The notes: generated by a model from the letters alone, not told the origin. DNA of 55,245 nt from a virus (IMGVR_UViG_3300017653_000203:1-55245); one strand, 5' to 3'; shown: positions 2,140 to 19,278, numbered from the stretch's first letter. A program made the numbers and translations.

Positions 2140-2318
2140 CACTACTTGACGCAATCCGCGCGGCAGAAAACGGAGCTGTCATCGTCTCTAACGCTGGCGC
2201 CACGTACACAGCTGCGGACTTATCGCCGATAACGTGGATCGGCCCGTTTGCGGTGAGTTACCGGACATGTATTCCGGAAAATGAACGAAAGGGAGCGTGG
2301 CGAATTGCCGAAGCTTAA
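2136..2318 (+). CDS. Hypothetical protein
   Basis: ATGA overlap with upstream stop; GGAGG upstream. Confidence 0.6.
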   Translation: MTLLDAIRAAENGAVIVSNAGATYTAADLSPITWIGPFAVSYRTCIPENERKGAWRIAEA

Positions 2319-2499
2319 GCGGAGTGAATACGAACAATGCCGGCGGATGCTCGACGGGCAGGGGATGGCGTTGTGGGAACGTTTTGCCAGCGGTCAGCTT
2401 GGCGAAGGGCGGTATGCGCTCCTTGACGATAAGCTGGCGGAGTGGGAAGCGGAGTTAGAGCGGAAGCGGCCGCTACTTTCGCGGAGGAAAGTCGGGTAA
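2305..2499 (+). CDS. Hypothetical protein
   Basis: AAGGGAG RBS, TTG start at 2305. Confidence 0.55.
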   Translation: MPKLKRSEYEQCRRMLDGQGMALWERFASGQLGEGRYALLDDKLAEWEAELERKRPLLSRRKVG

Positions 2500-2505
2500 T
2501 TATAT

Positions 2506-2549
2506 AAAAAAAAAACGCAAGACGAAGCCCTCCGCCTAGTCTTGCGTTT
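2506..2549 (-). terminator. Intrinsic terminator between convergent genes (probably bidirectional)
   Basis: AAACGCAAGAC...GTCTTGCGTTT inverted repeat next to a long A-run (U-tract on - strand). Confidence 0.75.
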
Positions 2550-2557
2550 CCGGTAAC

Positions 2558-3619
2558 TTATTTGAACTTCTCGACTATTGAAATTATTTCGTCTTTGTAA
2601 TTAATTATGTCCGAAACCTGATTAATCGGATGTGTCGTTCTGCTTTCGTTATTTAACATTAGCGATTTGTTTGTGCCGTTCAAGTAAAGACGACATACCC
2701 ATTTTCGAATGTTATCATCAATCAAAATGTTGAAATAGCTCTTGTTGTCTCTATAGTATAGTCTACTAGGGTCAATTGCATCCTTCATTAGCACTTTTAC
2801 TGTGATGTAACCTTCAATTTCTTCCTCTGTAGTGACAATTTCGGGATCATCGACGTCGGCAGAGGTAGCCGCGACTTCATCGACAAGAGCAGGAGGTTCG
2901 CTGTTAGTATTCTCCAAAGCACTTTTTAGTTTATCGTTTAAGAAGTCATTCATAAACTGCTTAAGTGCCTTTTGAACAATACCGCTAAAACGTTCCATAA
3001 CAACTTTAGTTTTTACGCCTGTGTATGCATCGGAGATGACAAGTTTAATAAACTCTTCCGATGGGGTCTCCCACTGTCTCTTTAAGTATTGTTTTATCTC
3101 ATTTGTGTATTTTAACTCTGAGGCAGTGTTAATGATATGTTCGACATTAAAGTTCGACTTCGTAAATTTCTGCAACTCTGTCCACTGGTGATCTCTTATG
3201 TCAAAGATATTGAGCTCAAAGAACGGTAATGTATCCATTTTATTCTGTTCGTCTAGGTCGGTATAAAACCTATAAATTATTCCGTTTGTCAGTATGGCAA
3301 ATTTGGATGGAGTCGTGCCAAAATACCTGAACAACTGGGAATCATGTCTCTCTAACTTTTCTTGAATGGACTTTGCCTCAATTAAGATAATCGGCCTTCC
3401 ATCTTGGAGTATTGCGTAATCTACTTTTTCGCCTCTTTTGATACCTACATCAGCGGTAAATTCAGGCAAAAACTCTTCTGGGTTAAAAACGTCATAACCA
3501 AGAGCTTGAAAAAAGGGCATTATAACGGATGTTTTCGTTGCTTCTTCGGTAGTAATACTATCTTTCATTTTCTGCAGGCGCTTTGCCAGGTTTCTTACAG
3601 GTTCTTTGAAATTGTCCAT
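2558..3619 (-). CDS. Stand-alone type I restriction enzyme R subunit N-terminal (HSDR_N-like) PD-(D/E)XK nuclease-domain protein
   Basis: EEATK...PFFQALGY...PEFTADVG...EKVDYAI...IEAK...QLFRYF...ILTNG motifs; AT-rich relative to flanks. Confidence 0.85.
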   Translation of the reverse strand: MDNFKEPVRNLAKRLQKMKDSITTEEATKTSVIMPFFQALGYDVFNPEEFLPEFTADVGIKRGEKVDYAILQDGRPIILIEAKSIQEKLERHDSQLFRYFGTTPSKFAILTNGIIYRFYTDLDEQNKMDTLPFFELNIFDIRDHQWTELQKFTKSNFNVEHIINTASELKYTNEIKQYLKRQWETPSEEFIKLVISDAYTGVKTKVVMERFSGIVQKALKQFMNDFLNDKLKSALENTNSEPPALVDEVAATSADVDDPEIVTTEEEIEGYITVKVLMKDAIDPSRLYYRDNKSYFNILIDDNIRKWVCRLYLNGTNKSLMLNNESRTTHPINQVSDIINYKDEIISIVEKFK

Positions 3620-3715
3620 GTAGAGTCACCCCAGGATTCCTATTATAGTAAACTACAAAATCTAGTACTATTATACTGAATTTCCTAGGTTTAGTATACA
3701 GACGAAGTGAATTTA

Positions 3716-3925
3716 CTAATAAGGAACAAACTCTACTACGTCTTCGATCCGGCATTCTAAATACTCACAGACCGTACGAAGCGTTCCGACTGATACGTCA
3801 ATGTCGTTATAGAGACGGCTTATAGTATTTTTGTTTATGCCAGTAGCCTGCTCTAATTCTTTACGTGAGATTCCAAGATCGGCCATTTTTACGCGGAATG
3901 GGCGGTAGCTTAATTTTAAAGCCAT
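3716..3925 (-). CDS. XRE/Cro-C1 family HTH repressor
   Basis: ISRKELEQATGINKNTISRL...TLRTVCEYLECRIEDVVEF; divergent from the rightward promoter. Confidence 0.9.
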   Translation of the reverse strand: MALKLSYRPFRVKMADLGISRKELEQATGINKNTISRLYNDIDVSVGTLRTVCEYLECRIEDVVEFVPY

Positions 3926-3990
3926 ACTTTACACCTTCTTAGTGGGGGGATACTAACGATAATAGCATAATTCCGAGTTTAATAAACTAA

Positions 3991-4010
3991 TTTCCTAATA
4001 TATTAGGAAA
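3991..4010. promoter_or_regulatory. Operator palindrome
   Basis: Perfect 20-bp palindrome TTTCCTAATATATTAGGAAA. Confidence 0.75.
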
Positions 4011-5768: not shown

Positions 5769-6134
5769 ATGAACCGCGAAGAAATCATAGCGAAATGGGA
5801 CGGAATGACCGCGCGTGAACGAGACGCTTGGGTGGCGGAGGTTGTTACGAAGGTACCGCGTGAGAGGCGTAGAATAAACTGTCCTGACGGTGACCGAGGC
5901 TGTGCCGTTATACATTTCGCGTATTATCCGAATTACTCAACGGACACTTCCGCGGCGTGGACGGTTGTTGAAGCAGCGGAATGGTCAGCGCTAATCAATT
6001 ACACACCGACACTTACACGTGCGAATTTTCATCGTAATGGGTGGGCGCAGTATGACGTCTATGCTACGAAAGCGCCCGAAGCAATCTGCCTCGCCGCACT
6101 ACTAGCAAAGCTCACGGAGGTGATCGCTAATTGA
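5769..6134 (+). CDS. Phage ABA-sandwich domain protein
   Basis: ERDAWVAE...PNYSTDTSAAWTVVE...APEAICLAALLA pattern. Confidence 0.7.
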   Translation: MNREEIIAKWDGMTARERDAWVAEVVTKVPRERRRINCPDGDRGCAVIHFAYYPNYSTDTSAAWTVVEAAEWSALINYTPTLTRANFHRNGWAQYDVYATKAPEAICLAALLAKLTEVIAN

Positions 6135-6910
6135 CGCAAGTATCATTTTCGACGCACTCGCAACACTGTAATCTCCGCTCAATCTGTTCGTTAGCCGACG
6201 ATACGACCGCTTGCAACCGTCTATGCTCGTCATACATCGCGATCCACGGACTAAACGGCGACGGCGGTCGGACGGCTGCGGCGAACATTCCGGACGGCTA
6301 TCGATTAGTTACGCTCGCCAATTCGGCAGCGGCCGCGGATCAATCGGCAATATACGGAGAGCTGGCGAAATACGCCGCGACGTTCAGCCGGCAATTTGAC
6401 CCGGACGAAACGCAAATTAAATCGCTATACCTGTATTCAGCGGAACCAGGCACGGGCAAGACGACGACGGCCGCGGCGTTACTCAACGAATACTTAGCGG
6501 TGCATTACGTCGGCTCACTCCGACGAGGACTGCAGCCAAACGCGCGGCCAGCGTATTTTCTCGACGTGAACGCGTGGCAGACGGATTTTAACGCATTCAA
6601 CCGGCCGCGGGTACCCGAATCAATCGCCGCGCCCGCCGCCGAAAGGTATTACCGCAGTCAATCCGCAGCGACCAGCGCAGGCTTCCTCGTAATGGACGAT
6701 ATAGGCGTACGCGACGCATCTGAAGCGTTTCGAGCCGACTTACACACGTTGATCAATTCTCGGGTGGCAGCGGGATTGCCGACCGTGTATACGTCAAATA
6801 TTCCGATGGCCGAGCTTGCTACGCTGTTTGACCGGCGGCTCGCGGACCGCGTGCGGGACATGTGCGCCGAGTTTACGTTCAAAGGCGTGAGTAAACGTGG
6901 ATTAAGATAG
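6131..6910 (+). CDS. DnaC/IstB-like AAA+ helicase loader
   Basis: Walker A PGTGKTT, Walker B LVMDDIG, TVYTSN, RLADRV; N-terminal Cys/His cluster. Confidence 0.88.
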   Translation: MTQVSFSTHSQHCNLRSICSLADDTTACNRLCSSYIAIHGLNGDGGRTAAANIPDGYRLVTLANSAAAADQSAIYGELAKYAATFSRQFDPDETQIKSLYLYSAEPGTGKTTTAAALLNEYLAVHYVGSLRRGLQPNARPAYFLDVNAWQTDFNAFNRPRVPESIAAPAAERYYRSQSAATSAGFLVMDDIGVRDASEAFRADLHTLINSRVAAGLPTVYTSNIPMAELATLFDRRLADRVRDMCAEFTFKGVSKRGLR

Positions 6911-14075: not shown

Positions 14076-15251
14076 ATGGCGAAATTGGACGTTGTAATTC
14101 CGAGTGCGGACATAGAGGTACGGCAGGCTGACGGTAGTACCGTGAAATACCGGAAGGTTGGTCGTCCCGCGCGCGTAGGTGACGTTGTGAGATCCCTAGA
14201 AACGGACGATGGAATTACGAAGGATGCGTTCTACGAAGTTACTGGCAGCGGTGGTGGATACGTAGAGTTCTACGATAATGACGGCGACGAACGTTATCGT
14301 GACGTAGAAGATTACGAAGTATACGAAAAAGTCGCCGACTCATCTGATATCGTTACGCACGAAGGCCGTCAATACCGTAAGGTGAAGCGGAAGGCGAACG
14401 TTGGCGAACTCGTTTATAGCGAAACTGGCGGAAAGGTGTACACGGTATCGGCGGATGTCGAGTTAGATGACGACAAGCTCTCTGTCGGATACGTTAACGG
14501 GGCAATGCACCGTTTATCCGTTCTCGAACCGTTAACTAGCGATAAGCCGATCGAGCATCCGAAGCCTGACCGTTTGAAAGTCGGCGAATATGCGAAGGCC
14601 GCAGGTCCGCAGAGAAACGCTTTGTACCGCAAAGAAGGCGATTATGTGAAAATCGTCGAGGATGACAGAAGCAGCCGTCCGTTTAGAACGGAGCATCTCG
14701 ACGGAAGTATCGCAGGCTGGGCGTACGAGTCCGATTTAGTCCGCGCTACGGCCGACGAAGTTGCCGCTGCGCTCCGTAAAGTTGACGCGCCAAAACCGAA
14801 GTTGGCCCGCATCCCCGTCGGCAGCTACGTTAAAATTCTGACGGATTCCGAAACATTACCGGAGGGCGCTATCGCTAAAGTAACGCGCGACGATGGAGAA
14901 TACGATATTTGGCCGTACAAATGTGAACTACTTGACGGAAGCAACTACGATTGGTATAAGCCGGAACAAATCGAAGCGGTAACGGAAGAGGTCGTGAAAT
15001 GGGCGGCAATCGGACGTAATGTTAACGAGTATAAGACGGGAGACGTCGTTGAAGTAACGAGATCGACCGGTTATGTGCTGGTAGGCTCTATCGGCGTAAT
15101 CGGTAAATACGACAGTAACGATAGTTTCCGCGTGAACACTTTCGAACGTACTGGCTGTAACTGGCACGGATCGAAAGACGTTAAACTCGTCGTTCCAGTC
15201 GAGCAACGTTTCGACACACGTAGCGAAGCCGACTTTCCGTACGCGTCATGA
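14076..15251 (+). CDS. Multi-module protein with repeated SH3/KOW-like units
   Basis: Repeats YRKVGRPARVGD, YRKVKRKANVGE, LKVGEYAK, IPVGSYVKI, YKTGDVVEV. Confidence 0.75.
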   Translation: MAKLDVVIPSADIEVRQADGSTVKYRKVGRPARVGDVVRSLETDDGITKDAFYEVTGSGGGYVEFYDNDGDERYRDVEDYEVYEKVADSSDIVTHEGRQYRKVKRKANVGELVYSETGGKVYTVSADVELDDDKLSVGYVNGAMHRLSVLEPLTSDKPIEHPKPDRLKVGEYAKAAGPQRNALYRKEGDYVKIVEDDRSSRPFRTEHLDGSIAGWAYESDLVRATADEVAAALRKVDAPKPKLARIPVGSYVKILTDSETLPEGAIAKVTRDDGEYDIWPYKCELLDGSNYDWYKPEQIEAVTEEVVKWAAIGRNVNEYKTGDVVEVTRSTGYVLVGSIGVIGKYDSNDSFRVNTFERTGCNWHGSKDVKLVVPVEQRFDTRSEADFPYAS

Positions 15252-17068
15252 ACATTACGCTCTCGTTAAACAAACGCAACGAGTCAACAGCGGCAACCGC
15301 AACAGCAGTAAAGAACGCAGTTAAACGGAAGCAGGCGGCGGTTCCCGAAACGGCGGCCGAGGCGTTCGAGCGAATCGGTAAGATGGCGTTATCCGATAAG
15401 GAACGAACCGCATACGAAGCAGCCCGCCGCGCGCACAAAGACGGACGAATAGGCAACGTCCGATCCGACGGCGCAAAGTGGACGAAAAGCGACGTTGTTA
15501 CCGCGGGCTATCGCTTACTAGCGGATAAGGCGGAAGCAGAACGGGCAGGGCGGATGCGTTCCGTCCTCGCCTCGAAGCCGCCGAACTACCGTATTCTAAC
15601 GGATGATTCCGAGCTGCCTGCGTTTGTTGACCGGTTGCGGCTCGAATGTAAACGACAGATGACGGAGTGGCGCGACCGGTTCAAGGCGCTAGCCGTCGAT
15701 ACGATGACGGCGGGCGACTTCGAGGGTACCGGAGTTGATACGTATATCGATTTATCGATCGGATTTTCGATATGGCTTCCGCTACTTAACGAAGGCTATT
15801 ATCTGCCGTACGGACACGTTGATATGTATAACGGCGGCAGCCCGGCGGAAAGCTTCGAGTTTCTAACGGAAGAGTCGGCGTTTAAGGCGTCCAACCCGCA
15901 GCTCACGCGCTCGAAGGTAATCGAAGCGATTTCGCCATATCTCCGCCGTCCGAATCACGGCAAAACGTTTCATATGGGAAGCGCCCGTTACGATTTGCAC
16001 GTCGCGATAAAGGATGGGTACGAAATCGCCGGCTGCGTATGGGACACGCTCGACGCCATGCGGCATTTGAATGAACACGAACCGTCTTACGGTTTGAAAT
16101 CGCTCGTCGCGAAGTACGGCGCTCTTTTCGGCGTGCCTGGTCCGATATTCACGTTCGAGGACTTATTCGGTAACCGTTCGCCGGCGCCATTCAATACGGA
16201 GTTGGTCGGCATCTACGCCATAAACGACGTACTTTATGGATGGAAACTGTTCGAATGGCAATACACTGCAATGGCGGCAGCACCTTCCGCAAACGGAAAA
16301 GGCCGGTTACTAGAATGTTACGCGAAGATTGACTCGAAGCTTCCGGAAACCGACGTGTTCCTTGCGCGATGTGGCTTCGAAATTGACCGGGCGGGGCTGG
16401 CGCGACTCGAAGCGGAATTTACGCCAAAACTCGAAGAAGCGCGGGCGGCCGTTATTGAATCGTACGGCATTGACGCGGCGTTCGTACGTAGGATGGATCG
16501 TACGTTGAATAAGCGCAAGCTTGACGACTGGATAACGGCGCAGCAACGGAAGATTTCGGCGAAGGCCGACCGGATTGCGAAGCTTAAAGCGGATATGGCT
16601 GCGGACGAGGCGGCAGGCAAAACGCATCTTAAACGGTATACGCAAAACGCCGCGAAGCTTGCCGAATTGGAGACGGAGAATTTACTACCAGCCGACGAAA
16701 AGCACGCGCCGCTATTTACCGATTCGTTTTCGATTACGAACGGAAATCACCTCGCGTATCTGATTTATGACCATCTCGGAATCAGCGACCGGACAAGCCA
16801 ATTTAAGCGAGGCAAGACGCGGAGTACGGCGGCCGACGTACTCGACGCTTATTACGAAGAGGAAGAGGCGCTGAAACCGCTGGCGACCGTTGCGGCATAC
16901 GAAAAATTGCTGAATACGTACGTGACGAAGATTCCGGCGGCGGTCGAGGCGGACGGGCGGCTGCATTCGGAGTTTAAAGCGGGCGGTACGGCGACGGGGC
17001 GTTATTCGAGCGCAGGGTATAGCGGACGGCCGGTCGATATATTACGAGAATTTGAGACGGAGGGATGA
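15248..17068 (+). CDS. Family A DNA polymerase, N-terminal subunit (3'-5' exonuclease, thumb, start of palm)
   Basis: ExoI DFEGTG, ExoII RYDL, ExoIII YAINDV, KLLNTY, DGRLH...TATGRYSS. Confidence 0.92.
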   Translation: MNITLSLNKRNESTAATATAVKNAVKRKQAAVPETAAEAFERIGKMALSDKERTAYEAARRAHKDGRIGNVRSDGAKWTKSDVVTAGYRLLADKAEAERAGRMRSVLASKPPNYRILTDDSELPAFVDRLRLECKRQMTEWRDRFKALAVDTMTAGDFEGTGVDTYIDLSIGFSIWLPLLNEGYYLPYGHVDMYNGGSPAESFEFLTEESAFKASNPQLTRSKVIEAISPYLRRPNHGKTFHMGSARYDLHVAIKDGYEIAGCVWDTLDAMRHLNEHEPSYGLKSLVAKYGALFGVPGPIFTFEDLFGNRSPAPFNTELVGIYAINDVLYGWKLFEWQYTAMAAAPSANGKGRLLECYAKIDSKLPETDVFLARCGFEIDRAGLARLEAEFTPKLEEARAAVIESYGIDAAFVRRMDRTLNKRKLDDWITAQQRKISAKADRIAKLKADMAADEAAGKTHLKRYTQNAAKLAELETENLLPADEKHAPLFTDSFSITNGNHLAYLIYDHLGISDRTSQFKRGKTRSTAADVLDAYYEEEEALKPLATVAAYEKLLNTYVTKIPAAVEADGRLHSEFKAGGTATGRYSSAGYSGRPVDILREFETEG

Positions 17069-17072
17069 ACGG

Positions 17073-17291
17073 ATGAAGATCGAGAAAGGTAGCGCATTAG
17101 GTTACGAATACACCGCACATTTGACGGGAGACGAACTTCGTACATTATCGCTAATTCTTGGCGCGACAAGTCCGGACAAAGTAGATTCATTAGTAAAACG
17201 AGAGGGTTGGGAGCCGGAGTCATTCGTCGAGGATGGCGGTTGGGAGATGTACAACGAAATGGAAGATGCGTTAAATGCTGACGGTAACTGA
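17073..17291 (+). CDS. Small acidic protein inserted between the two polymerase halves
   Basis: GGAGG RBS, ATG 17073, 72 aa; overlaps the start of the C-terminal half. Confidence 0.65.
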   Translation: MKIEKGSALGYEYTAHLTGDELRTLSLILGATSPDKVDSLVKREGWEPESFVEDGGWEMYNEMEDALNADGN

Positions 17292-18363
17292 CGTCAACTA
17301 TCACGCAATCGTTCGTAAACTTATCGCCGACGACCGCAAGGTTCCGAAGGGGACGAATCTGCAGAACATGCCGTCAAAGGGCGGCGGCGTCCTCGTCCGA
17401 AATCAATTCGTTCCCCGCGCAGGCTATACGTTCGTCGGCGCCGACCTCGGACAAATAGAACCGCGTATCATGGCGCATATCATGTACGTGGAATATGGCG
17501 ATAACTCTATGCGGCAGATTTTCGTCGACGGCACGGACTTGTACACGTCAATGGCGATGATGACGTTCGGACTTGACGAAGAGTATTGCGTTGACAAAGC
17601 GTACGATCCGACGGGCACGTTTAAGCCCCGCGCCATGATGAAAACCGGACAGCTCGCGGTATCTTACGACCAGTCGCCACGTTCCTTTGCGAAGAAAATG
17701 GGCGTAACAGACGACGTCGCCGCGATGTTCTTCGAAAACTTCGACCGGACATTTCCGTCGTTCCGGCAAATGGTTGCCGATATCCGTGATTTCATGCGAA
17801 TCAACGGTTACGTCGAAACGCTGTACGGACGGAAGCGCCGTTTTCCGGACTATAAATCGGTAGCCGCCGAACAGCAACGTAATGAGCAGCGGTTGATCCG
17901 GCTGTATACCGAGCGGAAAGCGTTGCGGAATCGAACGATATTAACGCCGCGCGACGCCGAACGGTTGCAACGAGTCCAGGACGAAATCGACATACTGGCG
18001 GAGAAGCGCGGACTAATCGGATATTGGGATCGGGCGGCATTTAACGCGGTGATTCAAGGAACCGGCGCGGACATTCTGAAAATGAACGGTAACCGTAACT
18101 CGCGGATATGCAAGGAACGCGGATGGGAGTTTAACGCGTCAATCCACGACGAAATTAAGAACTCGATTCCTAACGCGGATTTGACGGAGGGCACTATCGA
18201 GCTAATCGACGATATCATGACGGGAACGTGCGGACCAGACTTAACGGTTCCTCTCGTAACGGATATCGTAATCGAGCCTCGTTGGATGCAGGAGTTCGCG
18301 CCGGAAGAGTGGGATTTCACAGCGTGCCGGCCGAAAGCGGAGTATGCGAATAAATACGAATGA
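17275..18363 (+). CDS. Family A DNA polymerase, C-terminal subunit (palm and fingers)
   Basis: NLQNMP, motif A ADLGQIEPR, motif B RAMMKTGQLAVSY, NAVIQGTGAD, motif C IHDE. Confidence 0.92.
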   Translation: MLTVTDVNYHAIVRKLIADDRKVPKGTNLQNMPSKGGGVLVRNQFVPRAGYTFVGADLGQIEPRIMAHIMYVEYGDNSMRQIFVDGTDLYTSMAMMTFGLDEEYCVDKAYDPTGTFKPRAMMKTGQLAVSYDQSPRSFAKKMGVTDDVAAMFFENFDRTFPSFRQMVADIRDFMRINGYVETLYGRKRRFPDYKSVAAEQQRNEQRLIRLYTERKALRNRTILTPRDAERLQRVQDEIDILAEKRGLIGYWDRAAFNAVIQGTGADILKMNGNRNSRICKERGWEFNASIHDEIKNSIPNADLTEGTIELIDDIMTGTCGPDLTVPLVTDIVIEPRWMQEFAPEEWDFTACRPKAEYANKYE

Positions 18364-18376
18364 GGGAGCGGACCAC

Positions 18377-19030
18377 ATGGCTGAAATTAGCGCGGCAAAG
18401 AAACTCGAATTAATCACGAAGCACGGACGAAAGTTTGCGTCAAAGTCCGAGACGACTCCGGTATTGCAAGGTATCCGTTACCAGGCGGAAGGCTCCGTTG
18501 TAGTAACCGACCGTTACCGCTTGCTCCGAATTGGTGGCGCGCATAGCTTCACGGAGGATTTTACGTCGCACGCCGTGACAGGAGCGCCGATTGACGGTCA
18601 GTATCCGGACACGTCACGCATCATTCCGATGGAGCTTCCGTCGCAGATTACGTTAATAAACGACGGGTTCAAACGCGACGATTTAAAAGCGGCAATAGCG
18701 GCCGTTAAATTATCGGTCGAAGCCGCGAAAGTGTCCGGCGATAAGTCGTACATTACTACGCTTAATTACGAAGGAAGCTCCGTTAATCTATCGGTTACGT
18801 CTGAACATCCTTCGCTAAGTCTAACGGTGGGAATTGCGGCTGACACTTCCGGTAAAGACGCGACCGTAACGTTCAACGCCGAATACTTATTAACGGCGCT
18901 TAACGTATTCAAGGACGCCGGCTCCGGCCGCGTGATTATCGGAATAACTGGCGCGTCGAGTCCGATTGTACTCCGCGACGAAGTTAACGAAATTGATATT
19001 GTAGTGCTTCCGTTCAGGAGGGCGGCGTAG
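18377..19030 (+). CDS. Two-domain DnaN (beta sliding clamp) homologue
   Basis: PVLQGI...TDRYRL, DGQYPDTSRIIP, FNAEYLLTAL, SPIVL...VVLPFR; only 217 aa. Confidence 0.82.
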   Translation: MAEISAAKKLELITKHGRKFASKSETTPVLQGIRYQAEGSVVVTDRYRLLRIGGAHSFTEDFTSHAVTGAPIDGQYPDTSRIIPMELPSQITLINDGFKRDDLKAAIAAVKLSVEAAKVSGDKSYITTLNYEGSSVNLSVTSEHPSLSLTVGIAADTSGKDATVTFNAEYLLTALNVFKDAGSGRVIIGITGASSPIVLRDEVNEIDIVVLPFRRAA

Positions 19031-19278
19031 TGGAACGTTTACAAACGACGCGGTGCGAGTACGAGACGGCGACGTATACTTGCCCGAAATGTCGCACGAG
19101 AATTCAAGTGTTAGCGGACGAGTACGGCGATCATCCGTGCGGCCGCTGCGGTTGGGAACCGTACAATGACGAGGAAGAATCGGAAGATGACGATTGGTTC
19201 GACGATACGTACGATTGCGGGTGCTGTACGTGTTGCGGCTGTATGTGCGGTTTGGATGACGAAGAGGAGGACGAGTAG
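19030..19278 (+). CDS. Cys-rich acidic small protein
   Basis: CPKC, CGRCG, CGCCTCCGCMCG; AGGAGG RBS. Confidence 0.65.
   Translation: MERLQTTRCEYETATYTCPKCRTRIQVLADEYGDHPCGRCGWEPYNDEEESEDDDWFDDTYDCGCCTCCGCMCGLDDEEEDE

Follow-up and report, generated by a model that had tools for sequence, protein, structure and literature searches.

A family A DNA polymerase encoded by two genes

The stretch analysed here, hereafter the window, is an IMG/VR provirus record of 55,245 bases (IMGVR_UViG_3300017653_000203) with an estimated completeness of 85%, and our subject is a pair of genes in it that together encode one family A DNA polymerase (PolA). An N-terminal and a C-terminal part of the enzyme (hereafter the N subunit and the C subunit) are encoded on the + strand by separate open reading frames (ORFs), with a third, small ORF in the break between them, which we refer to as the cargo ORF (Table 1). 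This layout had been proposed in an initial annotation made from the sequence alone, as a PolA split into two ORFs around an acidic ORF of 72 amino acids (aa) with its own ribosome-binding site, and the ORF listing, the sequence and Pfam searches confirmed the split as well as the small ORF and the Shine-Dalgarno (SD)-like sequence ahead of it. A TAA codon closes the C-subunit frame directly 5′ of the ATG at 17275.

Table 1 Features of the split polymerase locus, in positions of the window
Feature	Position	Strand	Description
N-subunit gene	15248-17068	+	606-aa ORF: N-terminal extension of ~100 residues, 3′-5′ exonuclease, thumb, TGR motif
TGR motif (T583-G584-R585)	16994-17002	+	Within the N-subunit gene
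N-terminal half of the lineage-specific insert	17012-17065	+	N-subunit residues 589-606; the tail of the initial annotation is 17018-17065
SD-like GGAGGG	17059-17064	+	In the final N-subunit codons, 8 nt ahead of ATG 17073
N-subunit stop TGA	17066-17068	+	
Cargo ORF	17073-17291	+	72-aa acidic protein if ATG 17073 is the start
Overlap of cargo ORF and C-subunit gene	17275-17291	+	17 nt, end of the cargo ORF and start of the C subunit
C-terminal half of the lineage-specific insert	17275-17352	+	C-subunit residues 1-26
C-subunit gene	17275-18363	+	362-aa ORF, start MLTVTD: NLQN, palm, fingers, catalytic carboxylates
NLQN motif	17356-17367	+	Within the C-subunit gene, GTNLQNMP

In Pfam searches, the N subunit matched the exonuclease family DNA_pol_A_exo1 (PF01612; E-value 2.6e-05, 24.5 bits against a cut-off of 23.6) and positions 19-124 of the 381 positions of DNA_pol_A (PF00476; E 2.4e-11, 43.7 bits against a cut-off of 34.3), whilst the C subunit matched positions 126-380 of the same profile (E 1.1e-40, 140.2 bits, same cut-off), so that one polymerase profile is cleanly divided over two genes. 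Both halves retain their catalytic motifs, as had been noted initially: alignments of 39 sequences showed D157, E159, D249, Y323, D327, T583, G584, and R585 to be invariant in the N subunit, and N28, Q30, D57, E62, R119, K123, Y131, H291, D292, and E293 in the C subunit, which we take to be the exonuclease motifs (DEDDy pattern) and the polymerase motifs TGR, NLQN, A, B, and C. Judged by profile, motifs and exonuclease domain, the pair is a family A DNA polymerase. Alignment to solved structures matched N-subunit residues 489-590 with residues 477-578 of Taq polymerase and C-subunit residues 27-195 with Taq residues 579-735, which places the break between Taq residues 578 and 579 (D578/P579).

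The break is conserved among relatives

A blastn search against a phage collection returned 13 records, all of them Paenibacillus larvae phages of the genus Halcyonevirus (~67.5% identity), and each of these carries two genes annotated as DNA polymerase with a hypothetical gene between them. Eight further IMG/VR loci, in which the second half is 73-84% identical to that of the window, were retrieved in a scan of viral contigs. All of the first ten relatives (two Paenibacillus larvae phage lineages and the eight IMG/VR loci) have the split at the same residue, and their tail sequences are conserved, with the N gene stopping 15-18 residues past GRYSSxG and the C gene starting 22-27 residues before NxQN. 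Three added viral-contig scans brought the sample to 37 distinct loci, 25 of which are split and 12 unsplit.

The picture was the same at the protein level. A search for proteins of similar length gave 191 clusters at E ≤ 1e-20; among the best 120 of these, which were inspected, 117 have the same C-subunit head (in three of the 117, Q replaces the final N of the motif), and the other three start at a Met inside the motif, probably as a consequence of gene calling. Among the named sources of these clusters are Paenibacillus, Brevibacillus, Neobacillus, Cytobacillus, and several species of the Bacillus subtilis group. Since the same break recurs in 24 further loci and in 117 of 120 clusters, it is neither a chance event nor a feature of the assembly, and from these sequences Bacillales phages and prophages commonly have this arrangement, with at least 117 protein clusters. 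A profile scan of genome contigs, run with very general patterns, gave 80 loci at 24-29% identity, mostly chromosomal polA-like genes together with contigs of metagenome-assembled genomes.

Sequencing runs were also consulted. One DNA run that holds the stretch contains a contig bridging 17037-17541 with zero differences, although this run is possibly the window's own sample and therefore not independent, and in a run from another study a 151-nt contig covers 17074-17224, again with zero differences. No RNA sequencing runs that hold the stretch were listed.

Each tail is one half of an older insert

The sequences on either side of the break evolve as protein. Proportions of nonsynonymous (pN) and synonymous (pS) differences were computed over the 55 pairs formed by 11 sequences (the window and loci L001-L010), and both the N-subunit tail (pS 0.67, pN 0.15) and the C-subunit head (pS 0.66, pN 0.15) gave a pN/pS of 0.22. 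The flanking polymerase body gave 0.32 and 0.20, and the similarity of these values indicates that the tails are under the same constraint as the enzyme itself.

A search for longer proteins returned 111 homologues at E ≤ 1e-10, in all of which we measured the spacing from the TGR-type motif to NxQ(N/Q). The canonical spacing of three residues was found in 66 of them, 12 residues in seven, 17-18 in 19, 23 in one, and 38-40 in 18. The nine closest of the 18 unsplit homologues with the long insert are 905-946 aa in length and share 57-67% identity with the second half of the window's enzyme, and the 38-40-residue insert of the unsplit relatives is homologous, in order, to the window's N tail followed by its C head. 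At the DNA level, a continuous 38-residue insert is seen in 12 unsplit genes on viral contigs (L015, L111-L118, L120, L121, and L123).

The initial annotation had located the break inside the GRxSS-NLQN motif. The split itself is there, but because the tails are two halves of a continuous insert, what the break interrupts is a lineage-specific insert rather than the bare motif. The initial annotation had also joined the halves at a Gly codon present on both sides (GGG at 17015-17017 on the N side and at 17350-17352 on the C side) to give GRYSSAGTNLQNMP; the arithmetic of this join is correct, whereas its reading as an excision fails, as unsplit relatives keep the residues that it would delete. 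The shared Gly codons were accordingly rejected as an excision junction: the Gly before (T/V)NLQN belongs to the insert, both in unsplit relatives and in those whose insert is shorter, and there is variation at the residue that follows GRYSSx.

Predicted structure and assembly of the two chains

An AlphaFold2 model of one unsplit relative (P0007), built from a 51-sequence alignment, had a mean predicted local distance difference test score (pLDDT) of 92.2 and a predicted template modelling score (pTM) of 0.85. Foldseek matched it to the Klenow fragment (1d8y_A; E 2e-30, template modelling (TM) score 0.86 by target), and the modelled fold, that of unsplit P0007 rather than of the window's own chains, is Klenow-like. 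The model shows an ordered insert (residues 581-620), with pLDDT values of 93, 91, 96, and 93 by 10-residue block, which is predicted to consist of short strands, a short helix (588-591), a loop (592-601), a helix (602-611), and a strand (616-618); by alignment, the window's cut would fall in the loop at 592-601. As a separate observation, the N-terminal ~100 residues of the window's N subunit (15248-15560) form an extension ahead of the exonuclease with no Pfam family match, and the counterpart of this extension in the P0007 model has helices at 11-31, 35-43, 49-63, and 77-105, the first 30 residues being of low confidence.

For the window's own chains, a complex was predicted from N-chain residues 100-606 and C-chain residues 1-362, using our own alignments of 39 rows. 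The score was 0.86 (0.87, 0.86, and 0.86 in the individual runs), compared to 0.00 for the best of three controls, and of 80 solved complexes 58 attain the mark applied in this prediction, as do 2 of 110 mismatched pairs. At least 96% of contacts are shared between the runs, with a partner pLDDT of at least 89. The predicted interface comprises residues 581-595, 598-599, and 601-605 of the N chain and residues 1-2, 4-6, and 8-30 of the C chain, and C-chain residue 16 is predicted to contact residues 161 and 168 of the exonuclease domain. The prediction supports binding of the two chains.

On these grounds we regard it as very likely that the window encodes a two-subunit family A DNA polymerase of a Halcyonevirus-like Bacillales prophage, which is cut in the loop of an insert and reassembles non-covalently. 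The N subunit would contribute the exonuclease, the thumb and the primer-contacting TGR, and the C subunit NLQN, the palm, the fingers, and the catalytic Asp/Glu. With TGR and the catalytic carboxylates on different chains, the active site would be a composite one and the chains would have to reassemble non-covalently; we infer that they do so into an active enzyme, the two chains rejoining as a normal Klenow-like fold in which the halves of the insert and the exonuclease domain would form part of the interface. A non-covalent two-subunit PolA had been the preferred explanation of the initial annotation as well, and the conserved split, the selection on the tails, the junctions and the complex prediction all speak for it; what did not hold is the view of the tails as novel sequence, since they are the halves of an older insert.

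Junction anatomy and expression

The junctions between the genes are compact. A GGAGG lies inside the final codons of the N gene in all 11 of the cargo-bearing loci examined and in nine of the ten cargo-less loci, which accounts for the frequent Thr-Glu-Gly or Thr-Glu-Val at the end of the tail. In 10 of the 11 cargo-bearing loci examined, the stop of the cargo ORF overlaps with the start of the C subunit, and in the cargo-less loci it is the N stop that overlaps the C start (10 of 10). Six of the latter junctions are of the GTGA or ATGA kind, and the other four overlap by 10, 10, 1, and 14 nt, with the TGATG type also seen.

An SD inside the upstream cistron and a stop that overlaps or abuts the next start are, at the level of sequence, the marks of a coupled operon. 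This combination points to translational coupling, by which the two halves are probably made. Expression would be polycistronic, with the embedded GGAGG serving the next cistron and the C start overlapping the preceding stop, and from the same anatomy we infer near-equal synthesis of the two chains.

Contents of the break

Under the two-subunit reading the break would double as a gene slot, holding an orphan 72-aa acidic ORF in the window and unrelated genes, or none, in its relatives. Among the 25 split loci, 15 carry one + strand cargo ORF in the break and 10 carry none, and the 15 cargo-bearing loci contain 13 unrelated kinds of gene. The gap measures 206 nt in the window and 157-684 nt across the cargo-bearing loci. 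Proteins of DUF7296 fill the break in three loci (L001, L002, and L005). Ten small cargo ORFs have no mutual BLASTP similarity at E ≤ 1e-3, and only two of them match a PHROG family (L007 strongly, L004 weakly), in both cases a family of unknown function. Larger genes are present too: the break of L003 holds a 229-aa N6/N4 DNA methyltransferase (3318-4007; PF01555, E 2.9e-26), and that of L107, a viral contig from a soil metagenome, a 180-aa HNH_3 endonuclease (2462-3004; E 1.7e-07); in none of the other 24 split loci was a homing-type gene seen in the break. Loci L105 (96-aa cargo) and L106 (no cargo) have the same 65% identity to the query over the same residues and near-identical tails.

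With 13 unrelated kinds and 10 empty breaks, the split does not depend on the cargo, nor is the cargo a fixed subunit, and a causal role of the inserted gene in the split is not borne out. The initial annotation had proposed a test, namely that the split point and the tails should be conserved and the gene between them variable, and the loci bear this prediction out.

The window's own cargo ORF has few relatives. It matched no Pfam family, and among 1.84 billion representative proteins only two relatives were found (53% and 41% identity); a word-based search returned the ORF itself only, and a BLASTP comparison with the 72-aa L010 cargo gave E 0.11. As leads of low weight, the protein Atlas placed it near small phage proteins by features (0.89-0.90) and returned TM scores of 0.54-0.67 to small proteins whose automatic names are unreliable. 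A role of the cargo protein as a third partner that acts with the polymerase (as a regulator, or an assembly or processivity factor) would be compatible with the two-subunit reading but is improbable. In its favour, the ORF would be translated between the halves, uses the SD in the N gene and overlaps the C start, and its two known relatives end in the same residues that this overlap imposes, which suggests that they occupy the same slot. Against such a role stand the variety of the cargo and the ten empty split loci, and also the nature of some of its kinds, as the DNA methylase and the HNH endonuclease have functions of their own.

Evolutionary history

A tree was computed from the C-terminal body of the polymerase with 57 rows, of which 22 are split forms, 14 unsplit forms with the long insert, 11 forms with inserts of 12-23 residues, and 10 canonical forms. 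The split rows are every fifth of the 120 protein hits (24), less two that were dropped because the head lay outside the first 20 residues, and five additional rows (P0023, P0043, P0044, P0046, and P0047) are omitted as the search pattern missed their motif. All insert-bearing forms fall in one clade with 100% support, within which the split forms and their nine closest unsplit forms are intermixed in one strongly supported subclade.

The sequences suggest a stepwise history, in which a spacing of three residues was followed by 12-23 and then by 38-40, after which, in some lineages, the gene was cut in the loop and the break left empty or occupied by a gene. In terms of the enzyme, an ancestor would have gained an ordered insert of ~40 residues between TGR(YSS) and NLQN, and in the window's lineage the gene would then have been cut in a surface loop in the middle of that insert.

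Points against the two-subunit reading and alternative explanations

Several points weigh against this account of the locus. As to the order of events, the split state needs four changes on the tree, two of which are forced by strongly supported branches; in the approximately unbiased (AU) test, a single clade of split forms was not rejected (p 0.31), and the split may have arisen once, with re-fusions afterwards, or repeatedly. The unsplit relatives are predicted metagenome proteins, and 12 only are seen as DNA. The C-subunit starts in cargo-less loci were picked by a simple rule and checked by eye. Finally, the alignments behind the complex prediction included full-length unsplit homologues, and the chains' pass may stem from their likeness to solved single-chain Pol I structures, so that what the prediction demonstrates is likeness rather than binding.

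Of the explanations that would replace a two-subunit enzyme, decay, i.e., a pseudogene broken by insertion in a defective prophage, is very unlikely. The classification of the record as a provirus and its incompleteness would be in line with it, yet isolated, plaque-forming Paenibacillus phages have the same break (13 records of the Halcyone and Tripp groups), as do 117 of 120 related clusters, and both halves are under purifying selection with every catalytic position invariant, in agreement with the initial remark that the locus does not look like decay.

To a joining at the RNA level, in which 17018-17352 would be a self-splicing intron (group I or other) that carries an ORF and restores GRYSSAG-TNLQN, we give very little credence, although the idea has precedent. 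Group I introns interrupt phage PolA genes at conserved motifs in SPO1-type phages. A further case appears among the loci retrieved here, as the more distantly related PolA of Clostridium phage vB_CtyS-FA70 (L012) is interrupted at 2220-3030, between IGKDLS and QIEPR, by an I-HmuI-like HNH gene with non-coding flanks of 112 and 167 nt, and its downstream exon is annotated as a hypothetical protein. This interruption looks like an intron carrying a homing endonuclease, and it resembles the window in that a conserved motif is broken in a PolA from a related clade, in FA70 by a mobile HNH gene; it differs in that FA70 has the canonical three-residue GRYSS...NMQN spacing and a break further downstream, whereas the window lacks non-coding flanks and its tails are translated.

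A scan of window positions 16700-17700 against Rfam at E ≤ 1 found no intron family and two sub-threshold matches to unrelated families. Rfam found no intron family at the FA70 junction either, so that a blank result is by itself weak evidence. The stronger objections come from the gap itself, which is almost without non-coding sequence, its ORF abutting or overlapping both halves, and from the tails, which evolve as protein (pN/pS 0.22 at near-saturated pS) and whose homologous residues unsplit relatives keep in the mature protein; moreover, in ten loci the gap consists of an overlapping stop and start only. The RNA- or protein-level joining that the initial annotation had listed as its alternative was thus not upheld, given the Rfam result, the lack of Hint or intein domains in Pfam, and a gap that is fully coding.

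Recoding, i.e., a ribosomal bypass or frameshift that yields a full-length fusion at least in the cargo-less relatives, has a similarly slight chance of being correct. The frames of the cargo-less loci overlap by 1-14 nt, and a single frameshift there would give a fusion near the unsplit length; however, the window's gap of 206 nt holds a complete ORF with its own ribosome-binding site, the gaps of the cargo-bearing loci span 157-684 nt, and an SD with overlapping GTGA or ATGA is the ordinary signature of coupled cistrons.

Hardly credible at all is a protein-level joining in which the tails would be a very small trans-splicing split intein. Split inteins with genes between their halves are described for environmental 'fractured genes', as far as the available part of that source goes (PMC2677866). 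The break also lies within a highly conserved motif, the usual place for intein sites, but the tails are merely 16-18 and 26 residues long, the same residues are permanent and ordered in unsplit enzymes, and Pfam searches of both halves gave no Hint or intein domain. Inteins begin with a catalytic Cys or Ser and end in His-Asn followed by a nucleophile, whereas the tail's first residue is Tyr and the head ends in Lys-Gly.

Neighbouring genes

Directly downstream of the C-subunit gene, and overlapping its end by 20 nt, the window encodes a 228-aa, two-domain protein related to sliding clamps (18344-19030, + strand). It matched the Pfam family DNA_pol3_beta_3 (E 1.4e-06) as well as phrog_6615 'DNA polymerase' (E 1.9e-30) and phrog_947 'processivity factor' (E 1.9e-14), and L015 has a homologue of it (6002-6724; BLASTP E 3e-12) downstream of its unsplit polymerase. 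From its sequence, the clamp-like protein may be a processivity partner of the split polymerase. Directly 3′ of the clamp-like gene is an 82-aa Cys-rich acidic ORF that has CxxC pairs and, close to its C-terminus, a Cys cluster (19030-19278, + strand), and immediately upstream of the pair a 391-aa ORF, which by eye seems to hold internal repeats in the form of several short, similar segments, overlaps the N-subunit start by 4 nt (14076-15251, + strand).

Relation to known split polymerases

Split phage DNA polymerases as such are already established. In T7-like cyanophages of the S-SBP1 type, PolA is split into an exonuclease gene and a polymerase gene, a case described, in the accessible text of the paper, as the first in PolAs (Czernecki et al. 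2023, PMC10201439). As far as that text goes, the two systems are alike in consisting of two adjacent phage genes whose products are predicted to reassemble, but the S-SBP1-like cut is at the boundary between exonuclease and polymerase, whereas the window's cut is inside the polymerase domain and separates the thumb from the palm and fingers. The window's enzyme would furthermore build its active site from two chains, and its cut lies in a lineage-specific insert and often holds a cargo gene.

In the B family, gene 43 of Aeromonas phages 25 and 44RR is split into 43A and 43B (Edgell et al. 2010, PMC2988022), and the nrdA gene of phage Aeh1 is split by mobE, the split pieces co-purifying and being active according to the portion of that review at hand (PMC2988022). 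In these cases too, to the extent that the source describes them, an essential phage replication enzyme is made from two cistrons, sometimes with a homing endonuclease in the break. The differences are that another polymerase family or another enzyme is concerned, and that the breaks in the window's family mostly hold unrelated small genes or are empty, and sit in a pre-existing insert. The analogy to Aeh1 nrdA and mobE that had been drawn initially is therefore apt for the outcome and less so for the route, as a homing-type HNH gene occupies one of the 25 breaks (L107) and none is present in the window. Set beside genes in pieces in general, the window has two selected cistrons cut in a conserved region, whereas its break holds no homing endonuclease.

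The B-family polymerase of PhiKZ consists of two chains, DNAP-N and DNAP-C, with a clamp-related subunit, Rhc, and its two-chain structure has been solved (Basu et al. 2026 preprint, PMC13648687). On what is accessible of this preprint, PhiKZ has a stable 1:1 two-chain polymerase, and a clamp-related protein stands alongside in both systems; PhiKZ is, however, a jumbo phage with a B-family enzyme and a solved structure, while the window's pair belongs to family A and is known from sequence and models.

Closest to the window are the Paenibacillus larvae phages Halcyone (gp59, gp60, and gp61) and Tripp (gp65-67), whose GenBank records have the same gene pair with a gene between, as two DNA polymerase genes. 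A comparison of Paenibacillus larvae phages tabulates two Halcyone polymerase products only (Stamereilers et al. 2018, PMC6070908), and in the part of that article available to us the pair is not presented as a single split enzyme, and there is no mention of the insert or of the variable slot. A wider literature search, in which subscription journals and supplements were thinly covered, returned no description of a PolA cut between TGR and NLQN, or of the insert or the slot. Within that literature, as far as its accessible text reaches, the cutting of the polymerase domain itself is new, the only other family A split being the one at the exonuclease/polymerase boundary.

Implications for phage biology

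For annotation, the result means that two genes named DNA polymerase in these phages should be read as parts of a single enzyme, neither of them being a truncated gene or a duplicate. Split enzymes of the Pol I type could also be designed with the natural cut site and its insert as a guide.

We tentatively consider a further possibility, which we hold to be doubtful on balance, that the break is an exchangeable dock for cargo that serves the phage rather than being merely tolerated, with the cargo translated between the two halves of an essential enzyme, from the SD in the first half and with ribosomes passed on to the second. If so, the cargo would be expressed with the replication genes, an imprecise deletion of it would kill the polymerase, and phages of this lineage would carry and swap accessory genes there (for example for methylases, endonucleases, or small proteins of host takeover or anti-defence), the 40-residue insert that bridges the palm and the exonuclease domain having let the fold survive the cut. 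The break is in any case a place in which to seek new phage accessory genes.

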